Below the pieces are notes generated by a model. It was given only the letters and a program-made list of their open reading frames with translations. It did no database searches and was not told where the DNA came from. Below are positions 12,681 to 49,844 of a DNA stretch of 64,000 bases, one piece after another. This stretch comes from an archaeon UBA583 (GTDB lineage Archaea; Nanobdellota; Nanobdellia; Woesearchaeales; UBA583), in contig DAXK01000048.1 in NCBI GenBank assembly GCA_002506365.1, positions 18,627 through 82,626 of the forward strand. The letters are read 5' to 3'. Positions within the stretch are counted from its first letter, which is position 1. Every line of letters begins with the position of its first letter. The translations under genes were made by a program, and so were the position numbers.

Positions 12681-13565
12681 ATGGAAAAAGTAAATCAAAG
12701 AAAAAAATTAAATTATACAATTCATAATTTTAAAACATCTGATAATATTACATTAAATGGAATTTTAAATCAATCTAAATCAAAGCAAAACAACTCAACA
12801 ATTATATTACATATTCACGGTATGTGTTCAGATTTATTATCAAATGTTGGACAACTAGTATCAGAAACAGCAAATAAAAATAAATTCTCCTCATTTATAA
12901 TTAATACGAGAGGACATGGAATTGTATCAAGTTTTAAACAAACAAATAAAGATGGAACTAAATCCTATCATACAGGTGGAACAGCTTATGAAATTTTTGA
13001 AGATTCACAAATTGATATTCAAGCAGGAATTGATTATCTAAAAACTTTAGGATATAATAAAATTATTTTATCTGGACACTCAACAGGGTGTCAAAAAATA
13101 ATAAATTATCAATTAAATAACCTAAAAACAAAAACTGTAAAAGCATTAATTTTACTAGCTCCAGGAGATGACTTAAATGTTGAAAAAAGAGATAACTCAG
13201 AATTTCAAAAAACTTTAAAATTATCAAAAGAAAAATTCAATTCAAAAGCACTTTTCGCAACACACGACTTTGGATTACTATCTGCGAAAAGATTTTATAA
13301 TTTATTTAAAAAAACATCAATAGAATCAAATCTATTTAATTATACAAAAAATCTTGAATACTTAAAACAAATTAAAATTCCAATTTTAAGCTTAATTGGA
13401 GACGAAGATCCATATTTCTTAGATGTTCAAAAAGCAACAATTAATATCAAAAATAATCTAAAAAATCGAAAATCAAATTCAATATTAACAAAAGGAAATC
13501 ATAGTTACTATGGTGCTGAAGTTGAATGTGCTAGACATATAATTGATTTTTTAAACAAATTATAA
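12681..13565 (+). CDS. alpha/beta hydrolase
   Basis: Nucleophile elbow LSGHSTGCQ. The oxyanion region HIHGM and C-terminal GNHSY suggest the His. Confidence 0.6.
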   Translation: MEKVNQRKKLNYTIHNFKTSDNITLNGILNQSKSKQNNSTIILHIHGMCSDLLSNVGQLVSETANKNKFSSFIINTRGHGIVSSFKQTNKDGTKSYHTGGTAYEIFEDSQIDIQAGIDYLKTLGYNKIILSGHSTGCQKIINYQLNNLKTKTVKALILLAPGDDLNVEKRDNSEFQKTLKLSKEKFNSKALFATHDFGLLSAKRFYNLFKKTSIESNLFNYTKNLEYLKQIKIPILSLIGDEDPYFLDVQKATINIKNNLKNRKSNSILTKGNHSYYGAEVECARHIIDFLNKL

Positions 13566-13631
13566 TTATTTTATAATTTATTTTTTCAAAAATTACAAAT
13601 TATTATAAATAATAAAATTCAGTTTAATTTT

Positions 13632-14000
13632 ATGACTGATGAGAAATCTGCTTGGATGAAATGGAATCATACTAAAAAAAGAAAAAAATTAACTGATACT
13701 TTAGAAATTACAAATAATTTATTTTTTGAAAAACTATCTATTCCTGAAATTGCTAAAAAAAGACATTTTAAACTACAAACTATTGAATATCAAATAATTG
13801 AATTAATTACTTTAGGATATATTTATTTAGGAGATGTTGTTGAAGATAGTTTAGCTCATCAAATTTTAGATACATTTGAACACCAAGTTCCAGAATCACT
13901 AAAAGAAATTAAAGAAAAACTTCCTGAGGATATAACTTACTTTCAAATTAAATGTGTATTAGCATCAATTAATAATCAACCAGATAGTATTCATGATTAA
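13632..14000 (+). CDS. stand-alone helix-turn-helix protein (helicase-associated HTH_40-like)
   Basis: LSIPEIAKKRHFKLQTIEYQIIELI resembles the HTH found at the C-terminus of some helicases. Confidence 0.35.
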   Translation: MTDEKSAWMKWNHTKKRKKLTDTLEITNNLFFEKLSIPEIAKKRHFKLQTIEYQIIELITLGYIYLGDVVEDSLAHQILDTFEHQVPESLKEIKEKLPEDITYFQIKCVLASINNQPDSIHD

Positions 14001-14110
14001 TATTAATATTGCTTAATTATTTTCCACCAATTTATTTACTAAAATTTAATATTAAATTTTAAATAATAAAAATCTTTATAATAACTCAAATTATATTTAA
14101 TTTAATTACA

Positions 14111-15085
14111 ATGGATACAAATGATAAATTATATAGTTCTAAATTCAAAACTGCTGATATAAAATTGGGTTATGGATGTAATGATAAATGTGTTCATTGC
14201 GTTGTTGAAAAACTTCGAGATATCGCAATACAAAATAAACATCTTGATTTAAAAACTGATGAATATCTAAAAGAAATTGATAAAGTTATCTCGGACGGAA
14301 TTAAAAGAATAGTTGTAACGGGTGGAGAACCTACAATAAGAAAAGATTTTCCTATAATTATTGATTATATTAACAGTTTTGGAATTGAAATATTTCTACA
14401 AACAAATGGTAGATTTTTATCTAACTCAAACTTAATTGATAAAATAAAAAATAAAATTAATACATATATTATCGCACTACACGGACCAAATGAAACAATT
14501 CACGACATTGTAACACAAAGCTCAAATTCATTTAATCAAACTGTTCAAGGAATTAAAAATGTTGTTAAAATCGGTGGGAATGTTTGCGGGAAAACAGTAA
14601 TCTCAAAATTAAATTATAAAACATTATTACAAACATGTAAATTATATAACAAACTTGGAGTTAAAGAAATTTATATTGCATACCCTCATTCTTCTGGCGA
14701 AATTGATTATTTAAAAAAAATAGCTCCAACCTATACTCAAATAAAACCATATATAGAACAATGTTTAACTTGGGCAATTGAAAATAATATTAATTTAAAA
14801 TTAGAAAGTATTCTTCCATGTAATTTAGATAAAGAATTTCCAATTAAATATTACTATGATTTCACAGAATTTCTAGCTCAAAAAAAATATAAAATGCTTG
14901 ATGAAAATTATGGGTCTTGGGAAGAATTTACTAAAATGGACAAAAAAAAAGATTTTTCAAAATGTCAAAAATGTGTATTCAACAATTTCTGTAATGGTAT
15001 TTGGCACGAATATACAAACCTTTATGGATTTGAACAAATAAGACCTATAACTAAAATTCACGACAAATCAAATCTTAAATTCTAA
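14111..15085 (+). CDS. radical SAM enzyme with a C-terminal CxxCx5C auxiliary-cluster motif (possible HxsC-like maturase)
   Basis: GYGCNDKCVHCVV gives the CxxxCxxC motif, VVTGGEPTIRKD the SAM-binding GGE motif, and the C-terminus has CQKCVFNNFCNG. Confidence 0.8.
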   Translation: MDTNDKLYSSKFKTADIKLGYGCNDKCVHCVVEKLRDIAIQNKHLDLKTDEYLKEIDKVISDGIKRIVVTGGEPTIRKDFPIIIDYINSFGIEIFLQTNGRFLSNSNLIDKIKNKINTYIIALHGPNETIHDIVTQSSNSFNQTVQGIKNVVKIGGNVCGKTVISKLNYKTLLQTCKLYNKLGVKEIYIAYPHSSGEIDYLKKIAPTYTQIKPYIEQCLTWAIENNINLKLESILPCNLDKEFPIKYYYDFTEFLAQKKYKMLDENYGSWEEFTKMDKKKDFSKCQKCVFNNFCNGIWHEYTNLYGFEQIRPITKIHDKSNLKF

Positions 15086-15130
15086 AATAAAATAACAAAA
15101 ATATATAAATAAAATAATTATAATTTTTTT

Positions 15131-15439
15131 ATGAAAAAGGAACTTCCTAAAATTAAAAAATCGTTAAAATCATTTATTATCGAGGAAGATGCAAAAGTTA
15201 TGGATAAAACTGCAACTAAAGTAGCATTAGCTGTAACATTTGCAAGTTTAACATTTCTAGACTCAGTAGATGATGTAAACGCAAAAGGACATAGTAATCA
15301 CTATCACAAAAATAACTTATTAACTGAAGATTTTAAAACTGTTCAAGATCAAAGTGGAGAAGATTTTGAAGTAACTGAAGTTACACACACAAACGGATAC
15401 ACACACCAAAATAGTAAGCGTAGTTGGTATAAATTATAA
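15131..15439 (+). CDS. candidate secreted precursor peptide, His-rich C-terminal region
   Basis: 102 aa. A basic N-terminus plus hydrophobic helix TATKVALAVTFASLTFL and a VNA|K signal-peptidase-like site precede the repeated motifs GHSNHYHKNN and THTNGYTHQNS. Lies 45 bp after the radical SAM gene. Confidence 0.45.
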   Translation: MKKELPKIKKSLKSFIIEEDAKVMDKTATKVALAVTFASLTFLDSVDDVNAKGHSNHYHKNNLLTEDFKTVQDQSGEDFEVTEVTHTNGYTHQNSKRSWYKL

Positions 15440-15456
15440 AATTTATATCTATTTTT

Positions 15457-16635
15457 TTATTTTTTAAATTTATAATACAAATTAACTTTTTGATTTAAAG
15501 TATAATAAAATTCAAAACTTAAAGTAACTAATTCCTTATCATCATATTTATCTAACTTAATTTCTAACTCTGAAAAAATTTTATCATTTTCAAATTTATT
15601 TAATTCTAAAGATATATCAATTCTTTTAGCAATAATTTTATTATTTTTAATCTTAAAATCTAATAAAACTCCACGCAAACTTTCACTAAAACTATAATTA
15701 ATTATCTTATTATATTTTGATTTAAACTCATCTGGTATATCTGACACAAAATCATCAATTTCATATATTTTAATTTTTTCCTTTTGATGATAAACTTTAA
15801 TTTTAAAATTATTTTCTTCATCAAAATCAATTCCAATCCCCCAAATTTTATCACTAAGTTCAGGTTTTATATTTAAAATATCTACACATACTTTTAATTC
15901 ATTTTCACTATATTCATCACAACTAAAATATAATGTTTTACGAATACTTTTATCTTTCATCTCAGCAAAACTAATCCCAACTTTAGAACTTAATTGAAGA
16001 CATTTTTCAATTTCTAAAAACTTCTTACTTCCAAAAATACTTTGTAAATAATTATCAAATACTTTTGAATTTTTCATTTTATACAAATAACAAACAAATC
16101 TATCATTATTACTTTCTTGACTTTTACCTAAATAAGAATCAACAAAAATAAAAGATGACTTAACTAAAAAATCATTATTTTTAATTAACTCTAATAATTC
16201 AAAAGACATATCTTTAACTTTACAACTTTTAAAATTTTCAATTTTAGAAATCTCCTTACTTGAATTAAACTCAAAATAATCTTCTCCTAAAAACTCAGTT
16301 TCCCCAAATTTTTTTTTATAATTTAAACATTCAAAATCACAATTTAAAATATCAACAAACTTCCAATACTTTAAACACATATGAGATTTTAAAAAAAAAG
16401 AATAAATAATACTTTCTGGAAAATTTTTAAATATTATTTTTTTAATAATTTTTTTATCAATTAAACTATATAAATATTTTTTTTGAATTTCAAAAAATTT
16501 AGAAATAGGCACACCTAAATTATACTCTTTAAAATCAAACTCAAATTCTCCATTACATAAATTAGAATTATAAATGATATCAAAACTTAACTGATTATCT
16601 AACTTAAACTCTAATTTAAATGTATTATTATTCAT
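15457..16635 (-). CDS. hypothetical protein (392 aa), translationally overlapped with the HxsD-like gene
   Basis: 8-nt overlap with the upstream gene. The C-terminal half shows a repeating strand-strand-helix pattern (GISFAEM..TLYFS, GIGIDFDEENNFKIKVYH, GVLLDFKIKNNKIIAKRIDISL, LVTLSFEFYYTLNQKVNLYYKF). No family recognised. Confidence 0.55.
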   Translation of the reverse strand: MNNNTFKLEFKLDNQLSFDIIYNSNLCNGEFEFDFKEYNLGVPISKFFEIQKKYLYSLIDKKIIKKIIFKNFPESIIYSFFLKSHMCLKYWKFVDILNCDFECLNYKKKFGETEFLGEDYFEFNSSKEISKIENFKSCKVKDMSFELLELIKNNDFLVKSSFIFVDSYLGKSQESNNDRFVCYLYKMKNSKVFDNYLQSIFGSKKFLEIEKCLQLSSKVGISFAEMKDKSIRKTLYFSCDEYSENELKVCVDILNIKPELSDKIWGIGIDFDEENNFKIKVYHQKEKIKIYEIDDFVSDIPDEFKSKYNKIINYSFSESLRGVLLDFKIKNNKIIAKRIDISLELNKFENDKIFSELEIKLDKYDDKELVTLSFEFYYTLNQKVNLYYKFKK

Positions 16636-16963
16636 TGTTTGAATTTGAAACTCCTTGACTTAAAATTGCTTTTTCTAAAATTAATTGTCTAATCTCTGAT
16701 GTATTTTTCATTTGATCTAAATAAGAACTAGACTCAATTAATTCATCAAAAAATCCATAAACTGCATCATTTAAATTATTCTCTTTATTATCTTCATCTT
16801 TAAACTTTAAAGATACAATCCAATTTTTATCATCACAATCAATTAAAAAATAAAACTTATCTAACAATACATAAGTAGTTTGAACAACAACTTGTTTAGA
16901 ATAAATTTCTTTATTAATTTTAATTATAGCTTCATTATCAACAATTTCAAAATTTGACTTCAT
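16628..16963 (-). CDS. HxsD-like small protein (radical-SAM partner/chaperone-like)
   Basis: The track start is GTG at 17002, and ATG at 16963 (MKSNFEIV...) is more plausible. The layout (A.I.INKEIYSKQVV..TTYVL...YF.I......W.V.L......, then FFDELIESSSYLDQMKNTSEIRQLILEKA) resembles the HxsD family as I recall it. Confidence 0.5.
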   Translation of the reverse strand: MKSNFEIVDNEAIIKINKEIYSKQVVVQTTYVLLDKFYFLIDCDDKNWIVSLKFKDEDNKENNLNDAVYGFFDELIESSSYLDQMKNTSEIRQLILEKAILSQGVSNSNNE

Positions 16964-16984
16964 AATAATTACTAGCAACAAAAC

Positions 16985-16992
16985 TTTATAAA
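16985..16992. promoter_or_regulatory. palindromic TATA box shared by two divergent, apparently leaderless genes
   Basis: The centre of TTTATAAA lies 25.5 nt from ATG 17014 (+) and 25.5 nt from ATG 16963 (-), matching the archaeal TATA-to-TSS spacing of about 26. Confidence 0.45.
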
Positions 16993-17013
16993 CTTTAACC
17001 ACTAAAATTTCTT

Positions 17014-18444
17014 ATGGAAAATACATTTTGTAAAAAAGAAGGAATCGATTATATTCAAAACTTTTATAGATTCACTCTTTTTGACAAAAAAAAAATGATG
17101 TATCTAATTACTCTTGATGATGGAAACTTTTTATTTATTAATCAATCAATTTTTAAACAAATAAAACGAGGAAAAATAATTGATGAAAAAACTTACAATG
17201 ATTTATTATTAAAAGGAATTTTAATTACTCCTCAAAACATTTCAAAAGTAATTTCACAAACAAAAAATAAATACTCTTTTCTAACTCATGGAACTTCACT
17301 TCACATTGTAATTCCGACATTTAGATGTAATCAAGGTTGTAGTTACTGTTTTGCTTCACCAAAAGCAATTGATGATATTGAAAATGGGAATGACCTAGAT
17401 GAAAAAACTTCTAAAAAAATCATTGAATTTATTTTAAATTCTCCAAGTAAATCAATAACTATAGAATTTACTGGTGGTGAAGCTATGGCTAATTATGAAC
17501 AAATTAAAGTTATGGCATTACATGCAAAACAACTAAACAAAACAAAACAAAAAAAATTAACTTTAACAATAATTACAAACTTAACTATGGTTAATGATGA
17601 AATGATTGATTGGTTAATTGATCACGACATATCTATCTGCACATCATTAGATGGTCCAGAACACGTCCACGATAAAAATAGATATATTCAAATAAAATCA
17701 GGAAAACAAATTGGAACACATAAAACAGTTACAACTTGGATTAACAAAATTAATGAAAAATATAAACAACGTGGATTAAATGAGCAAATTGGTTCTCTTC
17801 CAACAATTACAAAATACTCTCTTCCATACTATAAAGAAATTTTAGATGAACACTTTAAATATAATTTAGATACAGTTGATATTAGAACATTAACATCTGT
17901 TGGTAAAGCAAATGAAGAAGACGATATAACATACTCAACAAAAGAATTTACACAATTTTATGTTAACTGTATTAACTATATTGAAGAACTAGAAAAAAAA
18001 TCAGGTAAAAAATATTTTGAAAGATTAAAAGAATTATACCACACTAAAATTATAAAAAATATGCCTGGTTACCATGCAGACTTTGAAAGTCCTTGTGGTG
18101 CTACAACTGGACAAATAACTTATCATTCTGATGGAAAGATTTATACTTGTCATGAAGGACTAGGACGGGAAGAATTTCAAGTTGGAGATGTTTTCAAAGA
18201 TAAATGGGAAGATTTATTTCAAAAACCTCAAACACAAAAAGCAATATTAAATTCAATGATTGAACAGAATGTTAAATGTGATAGGTGCGCATATAAACCA
18301 TATTGTGGGACTTGTATGGTGGAAAATTTTTATCATTTTGATAAATTTAATTTTTATCCAACAAAAACTCAAAGACACCATATCACAATTATGCAAAGTA
18401 ATGATATATTTGGAAAAATTTACAATAAATTAAATTTAAAATAA
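17014..18444 (+). CDS. radical SAM/SPASM-domain maturase (HxsB-like/anSME-like)
   Basis: PTFRCNQGCSYCF gives the CxxxCxxC motif and FTGGEAM the GGE motif. The C-terminus has CGATTGQITYHSDGKIYTC...CDRCAYKPYCGTC, a SPASM motif. The N-terminal YRFTLFD...YLITLDDGNFLFINQSIF segment is typical of HxsB-type proteins. Confidence 0.85.
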   Translation: MENTFCKKEGIDYIQNFYRFTLFDKKKMMYLITLDDGNFLFINQSIFKQIKRGKIIDEKTYNDLLLKGILITPQNISKVISQTKNKYSFLTHGTSLHIVIPTFRCNQGCSYCFASPKAIDDIENGNDLDEKTSKKIIEFILNSPSKSITIEFTGGEAMANYEQIKVMALHAKQLNKTKQKKLTLTIITNLTMVNDEMIDWLIDHDISICTSLDGPEHVHDKNRYIQIKSGKQIGTHKTVTTWINKINEKYKQRGLNEQIGSLPTITKYSLPYYKEILDEHFKYNLDTVDIRTLTSVGKANEEDDITYSTKEFTQFYVNCINYIEELEKKSGKKYFERLKELYHTKIIKNMPGYHADFESPCGATTGQITYHSDGKIYTCHEGLGREEFQVGDVFKDKWEDLFQKPQTQKAILNSMIEQNVKCDRCAYKPYCGTCMVENFYHFDKFNFYPTKTQRHHITIMQSNDIFGKIYNKLNLK

Positions 18445-18495: not shown

Positions 18496-19734
18496 CTATA
18501 ATGGTTTCATTAAACCAATTTTTTCCATATTTTTCCACCTAATATTTTCCATAGTATGATAAAACTTAGATGAGGGGAACTGTTTAAATCCTAATCCTAA
18601 ACCTTGAGTATCCTTCCCAGTTAAAACAAAATCAATATGTGCTTTAATTGGTGTAGTAGGTTTTTTTAATCTATTTCCATCTTGAAATTTATTTAATTTA
18701 TTAACACTTGAACTAAAAGGTAAATGTCCAAAATTATTTTTAGCTCCAGCATAAATAACTAAATCTACTAATTCTTGTTTAATTAATGGTTTACACATTA
18801 CTGAACTATATTTTTCATCAATAAAATCTCCAATTAATTCATCAGCCCCTCCAGTTACAGGTCTTGCTGAAATTTTATCTAATGTATCAACTGTATCAAC
18901 TAACGCTGCTCCAATCATTGCTGAATAAGCTGCCTTTGGACCTTGTGGCAAAAATAATCTCCCAACTGTTGAAATCATCGCATCATCACAACAACCAAAC
19001 TCATTCTCTCTTTTAATATATAAACAAAATTGATTATCAATATTTCGTCTATAATCACTTTCCAAACTATGAAATTTTTCTAAAACTCCATATTTATATA
19101 ATAATTCTTCTAAATCTTCACCAACTCCCTTTGATGATAATTTTGAAAGTTTTAATCCTTCCAAATCTCTAACTGCATCATAATTTGCAACATGACAATT
19201 CCCACCACCAATATTAATTTTTTTCCCATTAATGTCTCTATATAATTTGGAAACTCTTTGTCTATTTTCAAACTTATCAACTTGAGAAAAAATATAAGCT
19301 CCTTTCAAAAAAGCTTCCTCATCATAAATTACTGCATCTCTAAAATTATTTAATTCAAATGGAGTATCTAAAGTAGGTAAATTAATCATTCTAAGATATT
19401 CACCATGTTTAGAACCTAATAACGAACTTCTTTTATCTTTTTTACCTGTAACAATATCACAAACTTCCCCTAATAATCCCTTAGTTCCTTCAATATGGGA
19501 ACTTACATATTCTCTAACTGACCGCCCTTTATCTTCAAGAGGGTGTAATAAATCTAGAATTGTTGTTTCTGGGTATGCATTACCTCCATGTATATGTCCA
19601 TTATTTATTCTTCCAAGTTGAGATAAATAACTAATTGGTTCTATAATTCTAGCATAATTATTTGTGTCTAAATTAGACTGATTAAACCTTGTCACAGGAA
19701 TAACTTTATTTGTTGGGATAACTCCTTCAATCAT
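18496..19734 (-). CDS. conserved-looking soluble protein of unknown function (about 412 aa)
   Basis: The track start is GTG 19752, with an ATG at 19734. Low-complexity-free sequence with Gly-rich motifs (NGHIHGGNAYPE, NIGGGNCHVANYD, RPVTGGADELIGDF). I could not place it in a family. Confidence 0.5.
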   Translation of the reverse strand: MIEGVIPTNKVIPVTRFNQSNLDTNNYARIIEPISYLSQLGRINNGHIHGGNAYPETTILDLLHPLEDKGRSVREYVSSHIEGTKGLLGEVCDIVTGKKDKRSSLLGSKHGEYLRMINLPTLDTPFELNNFRDAVIYDEEAFLKGAYIFSQVDKFENRQRVSKLYRDINGKKINIGGGNCHVANYDAVRDLEGLKLSKLSSKGVGEDLEELLYKYGVLEKFHSLESDYRRNIDNQFCLYIKRENEFGCCDDAMISTVGRLFLPQGPKAAYSAMIGAALVDTVDTLDKISARPVTGGADELIGDFIDEKYSSVMCKPLIKQELVDLVIYAGAKNNFGHLPFSSSVNKLNKFQDGNRLKKPTTPIKAHIDFVLTGKDTQGLGLGFKQFPSSKFYHTMENIRWKNMEKIGLMKPL

Positions 19735-19924
19735 TTTAATTTGTTCAAACACACAATTGATTTGTTGTTTATACTCACTTATGGTTTTTAATACTTATAA
19801 GTCTTTCGCAAGTATTACTACTAATAGTTACAACACAAAATTTGTAAAATAGAATAATTTTCAATTTAAATTTATTTAATTAGAATTTGAAATAAGAAAA
19901 AATAATTGCTTATTTTTTAAAATA

Positions 19925-19996
19925 AGCGCCTGGCGCGAATTGAACACGCGACCTGCGGTTTACAAGACCGCCGCTCTACCCCTGAGCTACAGACGC
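19925..19996 (-). tRNA. tRNA-Thr (anticodon UGU)
   Basis: The reverse complement folds as a cloverleaf: GCGTCTG TA GCTC AGGGGTA GAGC G GCGGT CTTGTAA ACCGC AGGTC GCGTG TTCAATT CGCGC CAGGCGC plus discriminator U. No CCA is encoded and there is no intron. It is a GC-rich island in AT-rich DNA. Confidence 0.9.
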
Positions 19997-20058: not shown

Positions 20059-20610
20059 TTATTTTAATTCTGCATACGCAATTGGCGTATTTTTAGCTGT
20101 ATCCCATAAAACAAAATATTTATGTTCATTTAAATCAACTTTATTTGGAATTTCATAACTTTGATCTCCAACAGTTCCAAGTAAGGAATTAGATAAATAT
20201 ATCACACTTCTTCCAGCAATATTTGTAGATAAAGCAGGTTTTAAATTATTAGTTTTAGTAACTTTAAAATTATTAAAAAATACAAACTTTTTTTCTTTTT
20301 TTAATTTAACTTCTAAATTTCCTTGGATAATAATATTATCATCTAAACTTTTAAAATCTCCAAAACTTTTATCTTCAACAACATATAATGATTTTAAATT
20401 TGAGTCATAATTTTCAACATAATTTTCTGGAACTACTTTATTAGATTCAATATTATAATTTACAATTCTAACTGTTGTAAAAACTAAAAATACTATAACC
20501 ATAAAAAGAATTGATAATCTAATAACCATTGTTTTTGCATCATATTCAATAATGTAATTTTCCAATTCTCTTTTTTCATGATTTTGATTTTTACGATGTT
20601 TAGATTTCAT
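20059..20610 (-). CDS. membrane-anchored DM13-like domain protein
   Basis: N-terminal TM (LSILFMVIVFLVFTTV). The C-terminal FGDFKSLD...FVFFNNFKVTKTNNLKPALS...LGTVGDQSYEIP..VDLNEHKYFVLWDTAKNTPIAYAEL resembles DM13 domains. Confidence 0.4.
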   Translation of the reverse strand: MKSKHRKNQNHEKRELENYIIEYDAKTMVIRLSILFMVIVFLVFTTVRIVNYNIESNKVVPENYVENYDSNLKSLYVVEDKSFGDFKSLDDNIIIQGNLEVKLKKEKKFVFFNNFKVTKTNNLKPALSTNIAGRSVIYLSNSLLGTVGDQSYEIPNKVDLNEHKYFVLWDTAKNTPIAYAELK

Positions 20611-48743: not shown

Positions 48744-49844
48744 TTATTTTTTATAAAATACATCAATATTAATTGGTTCTCCACCAAGCTTACCAAATCT
48801 TTGGGAACCTAATTGTGAATGGAAATGCTTTCTTTGACTCGCAGGTTTCATTTCTTCTAAAGTATTTTCTCTAAAAAATACTCCATCTTTTATCATTTGA
48901 GTTTTTTCTTCAACTGATTTTCCAAGTAAAACATAATCAGGACTAGTATCCATACAAACAGACATTTTACCCTCAGGCATAATTCTTAATTTATGACAAC
49001 CTCCGCAAGCATATCTATCAGTATGCATAGATAAAACTCCAACATTTACACCCGTATCACCAACAGTAAAATAACTATATGATGGATTATCTCCTTCAAT
49101 ATTTTTTCTATGCATTGGAGTTAAAGGCCCAATTCTCTCAAGTGCGGAAATAATTTCATCACGTTGAACCATTTCATTTTCCCAATAATTTCTCCCATGA
49201 TCTTGTAATTGAGCAGGATTTGAAGCAAAAAATTGATTTAACTTTAAAACTAATTCTCCCTTATTATCTCTAGAATTAATATCTTGAACATATCTAACCA
49301 TATTTTCAATTTCAGGTAAAGTGGATCTCATAGTACAACAACTCATCTTAGTAATACCAGACATTTTTTCAACAGAATCCTCTAAAGAACTTAAAACTCT
49401 AGGTAAAATATCCTTTTTAGTTAAATGATAAAATCTTTCTTTATCTAAAGTATCCAAACTAACAATAACTCTAGTTAAACCATTCTCAATACACTCATCT
49501 AAATTTTTATATAGATTATACCCATTTGTTGTAACAACTTGTTTTTCAAATCCAACATCCTGAGCAGCTTTAACACAATCTACAAAATCACGCCTAACAG
49601 TAGGCTCACCACCAGTCCAATGAACTCTTTTAATTCCATTATTATTAGAAGCTTGTAAAATTTGAGTAACCTCCTCTAAAGAGATTTCACTCTGTCTTGG
49701 GAAACCTCCCTCAGGAGCACAATATGTACAACTAAAATTACAATTTGGGGTAAGTCCAAATCGTACATGCCATTTATTCATTTCATCCCCTTCAAACATA
49801 TGTGAATAACCAAATTCTCTCTCTATTCCTGATTTATCAACCAT
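48744..49844 (-). CDS. MoaA-like radical SAM enzyme (divergent, with N- and C-terminal extensions)
   Basis: LTPNCNFSCTYC (CxxxCxxC), HWTGGEPTVRRDF, VVTTNGYNL, SLDTLDKERF, and a C-terminal second-cluster region YACGGCHKLRIMPEGKMSVC like the MoaA C..C..lRlt.dG....C. Confidence 0.65.
   Translation of the reverse strand: MVDKSGIEREFGYSHMFEGDEMNKWHVRFGLTPNCNFSCTYCAPEGGFPRQSEISLEEVTQILQASNNNGIKRVHWTGGEPTVRRDFVDCVKAAQDVGFEKQVVTTNGYNLYKNLDECIENGLTRVIVSLDTLDKERFYHLTKKDILPRVLSSLEDSVEKMSGITKMSCCTMRSTLPEIENMVRYVQDINSRDNKGELVLKLNQFFASNPAQLQDHGRNYWENEMVQRDEIISALERIGPLTPMHRKNIEGDNPSYSYFTVGDTGVNVGVLSMHTDRYACGGCHKLRIMPEGKMSVCMDTSPDYVLLGKSVEEKTQMIKDGVFFRENTLEEMKPASQRKHFHSQLGSQRFGKLGGEPINIDVFYKK

Follow-up and report, generated by a model that had tools for sequence, protein, structure and literature searches.

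A possible archaeal variant of the HXS system with an added protein of predicted prenyltransferase fold

Could the HXS (His-Xaa-Ser) system of bacteria have a counterpart in archaea, and what would an added fifth protein do in it? This question is raised by five adjacent genes in a 64-kb stretch of archaeal DNA (the window, to which coordinates refer unless a relative is named). The genes encode two radical S-adenosylmethionine (SAM) enzymes of 476 and 324 amino acids (aa), the small protein HxsD, a 102-aa peptide, and a 392-aa protein (Table 1). With slightly better than even confidence, we read the locus as an archaeal (DPANN/Woesearchaeota-type) HXS variant that has been extended by a tailoring protein with a prenyltransferase fold. 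It is best filed as an archaeal variant of the HXS kind and not as a curated member. The layout given in a preliminary description of this DNA was found in full in the open reading frames (ORFs): five adjacent genes, 45 bp between the gene for the 324-aa enzyme and that for the peptide, an 8-nt overlap of the hxsD stop with the start of the 392-aa gene (ATGAATAA), and a divergently transcribed radical SAM/SPASM gene. Loci or contigs of relatives are designated by L and a number, and protein representatives by P and a number.

Haft and Basu in 2011 reportedly analyzed HxsABCD by comparative genomics. The view in the preliminary description that the Hxs system has no known function is outdated, as HxsABCD of E. 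coli gives broad protection against phages by blocking the entry of their DNA (Li et al. 2026, PMC13128918). HXS systems are found almost entirely in Pseudomonadota (99.7%), and 99.6% of them have the gene order D-B-C-A (PMC13128918). In E. coli, HxsB, HxsC and HxsD are needed for a +8 Da change in an HxS repeat and for the processing of HxsA at its N-terminus, and HxsC binds HxsD (PMC13128918). Our literature search for archaeal Hxs systems found no paper describing one.

We found that the 476-aa enzyme and the small protein encoded divergently from it resemble HxsB and HxsD. Among the hidden Markov models (HMMs) of NCBIfam, the HxsB model TIGR03978 scored 324.3 bits on the 476-aa enzyme over 3-426/466. 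The next family, PapB, scored 132 bits, and the sulfatase maturase model scored 77 bits. Pfam recognized Radical_SAM, Fer4_12 and SPASM in this protein. Both SPASM models passed their cutoffs (PF13186, 22.2 bits, cutoff 21.5; TIGR04085, 44.7 bits, cutoff 27), and Radical_SAM (PF04055) was above its cutoff in both radical SAM enzymes. The Cx3Cx2C motif of the 476-aa enzyme reads CNQGCSYC and its C-terminal SPASM domain is CDRCAYKPYCGTC. The small protein matched the HxsD model TIGR03976 with 59.4 bits (E=3.3e-16, model positions 1-84/90), above the curated cutoff of 50, and it is the sole protein of the locus that qualifies as a family member by curated criteria. Its orthologs in L001, L004, L005, L006 and L018 are 51-73% identical. 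A single-sequence structure model of HxsD had a predicted local distance difference test (pLDDT) score of 57.

HxsD, called HxsD-like in the preliminary description, most likely starts at ATG 16963 and not at GTG 17002, because its relatives align from that methionine (alignment A6). The spacer between the divergent hxsD and hxsB genes is therefore exactly 50 bp. A palindromic TTTATAAA lies at 16985-16992, its center 25.5 nt from each ATG. The spacer is likewise 50 bp long and has TTTATAAA at its center in L006, L001 and L005, and TTTATAAA is also present in L004. This sequence occurs 13 times in the 64 kb, and the chance of a match is ~1% per 50-bp interval. We suggest that TTTATAAA is a candidate bidirectional archaeal TATA box shared by putative leaderless transcripts of hxsB and of hxsD with the 392-aa gene.

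The HxsC-like role of the 324-aa enzyme draws its support from gene context (adjacency to the peptide gene, and the gene set of L015) rather than from HMM score. The enzyme matched Radical_SAM of Pfam (E=4.8e-21) and has an N-terminal Cx3Cx2C motif (C23/C27/C30). Four cysteines are invariant in the family (C237, C285, C288 and C294; alignment A3) and belong to a C-terminal module, CxxCx5CxG...Y..GFxEFxP. The two best NCBIfam models were HxsC4 (NF038332, 107.2 bits) and HxsC (TIGR03977, 75.8 bits), and HxsC4 aligned end to end, including the C-terminal cysteine module. Neither radical SAM enzyme fell to the unrelated housekeeping families that the preliminary description had named as the alternative. 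A gene for a leader-bearing peptide follows the HxsC-like gene in the window and in L006, L007, L008, L009, L014 and L018, among homologs from 36% to 95% identical.

The peptide has a conserved leader and a core with short histidine motifs. We defined the family from 16 cluster representatives plus copies derived from the loci, and an HMM of the leader detected the peptide in 10 loci. The leader of ~53 aa (residues 1-53) is almost invariant, MKKELPKIKKSLKSFI.EEDAKVIDKTATKIA...VDDVNA/KG, and consists of a Lys-rich N-region, a hydrophobic stretch of ~13 residues, and a signal-peptidase-like site, VNA/KG. Cleavage at this site (slash) is predicted from the -3/-1 rule alone. Invariant residues are M1, P6, K10, K13, F15, K22, K30, H54, H59, N61, H86 and N88 (alignments A2, A4). 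In the family, the core has His-x-(Ser/Asn) triplets in two clusters of three, usually HGS-HTN-HKN and HAN-HYN-H.N, which flank a variable linker; a Gly-rich tail with a final Cys often comes after them. The core of the window peptide reads HSN-HY-HKN and HTN-GYT-HQN and has no terminal Cys. The term "His-rich" in the preliminary description was generous for a peptide with 5 His, although all five do lie in the C-terminal half, within its two short motifs. The sole family match of the 102-aa peptide was HxsA3 (NF038309, 15.5 bits, E=0.011), over the leader part only; the ortholog in L006 matched positions 2-79/81 of the same model (E=3.7e-5).

A gene for a CN_hydrolase protein (nitrilase/Lnt-like) adjoins a His-x-Asn peptide gene in two differing contexts, L010 (8193-9644, - strand) and L014 (9230-10207, + strand). 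The two proteins are 39% identical to each other.

The 392-aa protein, described earlier as an ORFan and a partner of uncharacterized biology, turned out to have relatives and a recognizable fold. A word-indexed search returned one 99% identical copy only. With an exhaustive HMMER search, the number of representatives rose to 30 (370-470 aa, on archaeal-type contigs), and there are syntenic homologs in L006 and L018. The family had no match in Pfam, NCBIfam, PADLOC or PHROGs; 28 members compared with Pfam gave nothing credible (best E=0.021, unrelated families). A metagenome scan for the family used the four closest sequences, and scans of viral contigs for this family and for HxsB gave no relatives.

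We found homology between the N-terminal domain of the 392-aa protein (residues ~1-125) and the C-terminal half of the HxsC-like family (hhalign of alignment A1 with the HxsC family, 96%, E=4.4e-9). The homology takes in the cysteine module, FPxC...CxxCx5CxG...Y..KFG..EF.P, and the four-Cys motif CxxCx5CxG is kept in 16/28 family members. The whole protein was modeled with AlphaFold2 (AF2) from the family alignment (pLDDT 87.4; predicted template modeling score [pTM], 0.83). In the model, residues ~157-390 form ten strands, arranged as five beta-beta pairs with helices between them, which is the architecture of a PT-barrel. All of the top 50 Foldseek matches in the Protein Data Bank (PDB) were ABBA prenyltransferases (E=1.9e-8 to 1e-5; target-normalized TM score up to 0.59). 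They include PagF, KgpF and LimF, which act on ribosomally made, post-translationally modified peptides (RiPPs), and the histidine-prenylating enzyme FunA. Based on the model, we are confident that the C-terminal domain is predicted to have the ABBA prenyltransferase fold, a 10-stranded antiparallel barrel. On this model, the family is a clade of prenyltransferase-fold proteins, orphan at the level of sequence, to which a radical SAM-derived domain is fused.

Conserved basic residues (R159/K160/R161, R179, R232/K233, K280, K328, K337/R338 and K383) and tyrosines (Y182/183/185, Y236, Y282 and Y387/388) are found at alternating positions of the strands. Although the family is only ~30% identical overall, 75-95% of its members share approximately 20 polar or aromatic residues of the strands, and the window protein retains most of them. 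The alternating Arg/Lys/Tyr pattern is what the interior of a diphosphate-binding barrel would resemble, provided that these residues point into the barrel.

The barrel of five beta-beta-alpha(-alpha) units predicted here is common to the ABBA peptide prenyltransferases of cyanobactin pathways (PagF, KgpF, LimF) and to FunA. Like the genes of cyanobactin-type prenyltransferases, the 392-aa gene is linked to that of a ribosomal precursor peptide. In contrast to these enzymes, the 392-aa protein comes from archaeal hosts, has no detectable sequence similarity to PagF, KgpF, LimF or FunA, and carries the extra radical SAM-derived N-terminal domain with its four-Cys motif in those members that keep it. 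Its partners are radical SAM enzymes rather than the proteases and heterocyclases of cyanobactin pathways. There are precedents for imidazole prenylation in LimF, which geranylates His-C2 of RiPPs, and in FunA, whose prenylated substrate is free histidine.

The five genes are real and maintained, because near-identical copies of locus genes are present in independent samples (P0001, 99%; P0002, 95%; P0151, 99%), AF2 modeled the 392-aa protein with confidence, and the ratios of nonsynonymous to synonymous substitution rates (dN/dS) are low. Selection was measured for the HxsC-like gene and the peptide gene against the closest relative, L007 (95% identical), and was purifying in both (dN/dS 0.06 and 0.16, respectively). 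The nearest genomic relatives of the 476-aa protein (54-57% identity) are Woesearchaeota/Nanoarchaeia metagenome-assembled genomes (MAGs), and the host is therefore a DPANN-type archaeon, in agreement with the archaeal origin assumed earlier. The window has a G+C content of approximately 25%, one tRNA-Thr, and ordinary chromosomal genes (GyrA, TopA, ThrRS, MetRS, a NOG1-type GTPase and glutamate dehydrogenase).

The arrangement is shared by close relatives. In L006, HxsC and the peptide are followed by a 363-aa ABBA paralog and a 374-aa ABBA ortholog (36.5% identity, E=2e-57); the ortholog overlaps HxsD, from which HxsB is divergent, and the genes downstream are those of the window. The window and L006 proteins are 77% (HxsB), 79% (HxsC), 73% (HxsD), 66% (peptide) and 36.5% (ABBA-fold protein) identical. 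L009 and L018 are arranged like L006 as far as their contigs reach. In the window, L006 and L018, hxsD and the ABBA gene share 8 to 11 nt. L015, a Woesearchaeota MAG, carries HxsD, a 67-aa ORF and an HxsB with a fused APH kinase domain, then HxsC and, adjoining it on the opposite strand, the gene for a leader-related peptide. The order D-x-B-C of L015 is closer to bacterial HXS than that of the window is.

Two features of these relatives have no counterpart in the window. The second ABBA-fold paralog is more divergent (359-363 aa, 27% identical to the window protein) and sits between the peptide gene and the first copy in L006 (9398-10489, - strand), L009 (8586-9665, - strand) and L018 (1469-2542); the window has one copy only. 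The fusion of HxsB to a kinase domain in L015 (4638-7004, + strand) matched APH of Pfam with E=8.9e-14. An ORF of 278-301 aa just upstream of HxsC in L006 (7094-7999, + strand), L009 (6409-7245, + strand) and L018 had weak kinase-like matches (TCAD9, E~4e-4; APH, E=0.04). We considered a kinase partner for the window locus and rejected it, as no such gene is found there and the matches of the L006 and L009 ORFs were weak (E~4e-4 to 0.04).

Table 1. Coordinates of the five genes and the divergent spacer in the window
Feature	Position	Strand	Remarks
HxsC-like radical SAM enzyme	14111-15085	+	324 aa; Cx3Cx2C and four conserved C-terminal Cys
HxsA-like precursor peptide	15131-15439	+	102 aa; 45 bp 3' of the HxsC-like gene
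Two-domain accessory protein, predicted ABBA fold	15457-16635	-	392 aa
HxsD	16628-16963	-	111 aa from ATG 16963; longest ORF reaches GTG 17002
Divergent spacer	16964-17013		50 bp between hxsD and hxsB starts
HxsB-like radical SAM/SPASM enzyme	17014-18444	+	476 aa; divergent from HxsD

From the gene content, the homologies, the predicted fold, the synteny and the purifying selection on the HxsC-like gene and the peptide gene, we infer a pathway, including its chemistry, the docking of the N-terminal domain, export and a biological role. The 102-aa precursor would be made with its highly conserved ~53-aa leader. By analogy with E. coli HXS, the HxsB-like and HxsC-like enzymes would modify the core His-x-Asn(/Ser) motifs in the cytoplasm, with HxsD assisting. 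The 392-aa protein would be translationally coupled to HxsD. Its HxsC-type module, a probable docking module for HxsD or the peptide, would bring it to the same substrate or complex. There, the PT-barrel would modify the substrate further, most likely by prenylating an imidazole or aromatic side chain, as suggested by the fold, the conservation and the gene linkage. The added 392-aa protein would probably be a prenylating tailoring enzyme. The leader, judging from its features, would then direct export and be removed. The product could serve in antiviral gatekeeping at the surface, by analogy with E. coli, or in metal binding or another function.

A more far-reaching version of this pathway we put forward tentatively, and hold to be somewhat unlikely as a whole. 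In it, the HXS effector pathway would have been rebuilt in DPANN archaea. A secreted His-x-Asn peptide would be cross-linked or otherwise modified by HxsB, HxsC and HxsD and then lipidated by a new clade of PT-barrel prenyltransferases, for which a copy of an HxsC domain would be the means of recruitment. In place of the peptidoglycan-binding domain of bacterial HxsA, the isoprenoid would hold the effector in the archaeal membrane or S-layer space, and the effector would be a surface gatekeeper, possibly an antiviral one. No earlier RiPP-like pathway would have combined radical SAM with ABBA enzymes, and no Hxs-type system would have been described in archaea before.

The window locus has in common with the HXS systems of E. 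coli and Klebsiella a SPASM-type HxsB, a shorter HxsC radical SAM enzyme and a small HxsD. In common with bacterial HXS, it has a substrate with an N-terminal export or processing region and short His-x-(small polar) motifs. It differs in its archaeal host and in the additional PT-barrel protein.

Several observations weigh against reading the locus as an extended archaeal HXS variant. The scores of three of its proteins are under the curated cutoffs: 324.3 versus 370 for HxsB, 107.2 versus 500 for HxsC4, 75.8 versus 267.9 for HxsC, and 15.5 (15-23 with the L006 ortholog) versus 65 for HxsA3. The 476-aa enzyme is therefore, by the NCBI criterion, a divergent homolog of HxsB and not an equivalog. 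The minor variants HxsA3 and HxsC4 gave the highest scores with the peptide leader and the 324-aa enzyme, respectively, and scores so far below the cutoffs indicate that the window genes are distant relatives and not members of those variants. The Hxs composition first proposed (two radical SAM enzymes, HxsD and a peptide) accordingly stands as far as the top-scoring families and HxsD itself are concerned, and falls short of curated membership for HxsB, HxsC and HxsA. The 324-aa enzyme scored no worse with heme b synthase (76.1 bits) than with classic HxsC. The peptide differs from bacterial HxsA in its length of 102 aa, in having two clusters of His-x-Asn in place of tandem HxS repeats, and in lacking a peptidoglycan-binding domain; the Pfam scan found no domain in it. 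The His-Xaa-Ser motif of the HXS system is absent, with zero H-x-S triplets in the window peptide and H-x-N instead (HSN, HKN, HTN, HQN), whereas the peptides of relatives have one HGS followed by H-x-N triplets. The window peptide also looks somewhat degenerate, with His replaced by Gly in the second motif and one residue deleted in the first. The gene order is C-A / ABBA-D / B and not D-B-C-A. Lastly, the locus lies outside any recognizable defence island. PADLOC (2023) gave only generic viperin/radical SAM-core matches, which are uninformative because that release has no HXS model.

The remaining objections concern the 392-aa protein, and most of them speak for the most probable of the alternatives, which we nonetheless consider unlikely: that the locus is Hxs-like but the PT-barrel is non-catalytic and adds nothing to the peptide, acting as a scaffold, a chaperone, or an immunity-type binder of the peptide or HxsD, in the manner of ABBA homologs without catalytic activity. 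The likeness to prenyltransferases is one of fold only; comparison of the family profile with PDB sequences gave chance matches (E>0.1) and no sequence-level link. The N-terminal cysteine motif has been lost in the window protein and its two closest relatives, and the window lineage has lost strand residues as well (K160S, R161S, Y182C, N186K, S336A). No gene for isoprenoid-diphosphate synthesis is found within the window, and the isoprenoid-diphosphate pathway is absent from many DPANN archaea. The protein also diverges rapidly, with a dN of 0.56 between the window and L006 compared to 0.14-0.19 for HxsB, HxsC and HxsD. In this comparison only the dN values were used because dS is saturated (~1), and the dN/dS ratio of 1.19 for the ABBA gene is left uninterpreted. 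In contrast, the conservation of ~20 strand positions across so divergent a family, with Arg, Lys and Tyr alternating on most strands, is typical of a ligand-binding interior, and most of these residues are still present in the window protein. This speaks against a non-catalytic barrel.

A second alternative, which we regard as quite improbable, is that the locus consists of two or three independent modules that happen to be adjacent (HxsC with the peptide, HxsD with HxsB, and the ABBA gene), the 392-aa protein belonging to an unrelated pathway, for example with a rhomboid protease and a Cys-rich secreted protein. The five-gene synteny noted in the preliminary description holds in L006, L009 and L018, but farther archaeal relatives keep locally only the HxsD/HxsB pair, which stands alone among ribosomal-protein genes in L001, L004 and L005. 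HxsC and the peptide stand alone in L014. An ABBA-family gene lies downstream of genes for a TPR-rhomboid protease and a Cys-rich 165-aa secreted or membrane protein in L010 (5099-8272), L012 (5401-8365) and L019/L020 (6310-9182); in L012 and L019/L020 the surrounding 7-8 kb contain neither an Hxs gene nor the peptide. The window and its 95% identical relative L007 also differ in the flank upstream of HxsC. These observations would fit separate modules. Against them, the hxsD stop codon lies within the ABBA gene in three lineages, the ABBA N-terminal domain is derived from HxsC, and the B, C, D and A genes form a single unit in bacteria and in L015. In addition, the ABBA-family gene of L010/L017 has no adjacent radical SAM gene, yet a member of this peptide family is encoded two genes away, which provides an independent link of the barrel protein to the peptide family.

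The rhomboid proteins raise a further point. Given the hydrophobic segment of the leader, the rhomboid could be the processing protease of the peptide in the genomes of L010, L012 and L019/L020. Small ORFs near other ABBA genes (165 aa and 111 aa in L010, 165 aa in L012) were considered as HxsD-like proteins and rejected, having no NCBIfam match.

The last alternative, that both radical SAM proteins have housekeeping roles (heme/siroheme, MoaA-like, or anaerobic sulfatase maturase) and only a superficial likeness to Hxs, could draw on the heme b synthase score, on the many 33-40% identical bacterial homologs of the 324-aa enzyme without Hxs partners (for example, in L016) and on the ribosomal-protein neighbors of HxsD/HxsB pairs, but is very improbable in view of the HxsB score relative to that of sulfatase maturase, an HxsD that passes its cutoff, the full-length HxsC4 alignment, the dedicated leader peptide always found beside the HxsC-like gene, and the presence of a separate MoaA-like gene in the window.

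That gene, the third radical SAM gene of the window (48744-49844, - strand), matched Radical_SAM and, below threshold, Mob_synth_C. It has weak similarity (~28% over 78-102 aa) to the core of the relatives' HxsC-like proteins, and seems to have a housekeeping role with no relation to the locus.

The neighborhood of the locus differs among lineages on both sides. Upstream of HxsC, the window (region 12681-14110) has genes for an alpha/beta hydrolase and an HTH_40 protein (13632-14000), whereas L006, L007 and L009 have GyrB, SecDF, TatD and an unknown protein of 362-370 aa. Because this flank differs even from that of L007 (1-8000 compared), there is a rearrangement boundary immediately upstream of HxsC. 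A PHROGs search with the HTH_40 gene and ORF183 was empty. Downstream, a 418-aa ORF (18496-19752, - strand) lies between HxsB and the tRNA-Thr gene (19925-19996, - strand), and had no match in Pfam, NCBIfam, PADLOC or PHROGs. L006 does not have this gene; HxsB there precedes a homolog of window ORF 20059-20610. The 418-aa ORF may be a lineage-specific insertion beside the tRNA. GC skew is negative across nearly all of the window (1-64000), with a cumulative value down to -8.7 and single 2-kb windows down to -0.56; the + strand of this 25% G+C sequence therefore has a strong excess of C over G.

The fusion of a predicted PT-barrel to a radical SAM-derived module is a combination not described among peptide-modifying pathways, and if the barrel acts on histidine or modified histidine, it would add to a very short list of imidazole prenyltransferases. 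The archaeal locus would extend HXS to DPANN archaea, a group in which little is known of surface biology and of defence against viruses. The radical chemistry of HXS is unsolved, and the short archaeal substrate, of soluble size with ~50 residues when matured and simple conserved His-x-Asn motifs, could be a more tractable model for it.

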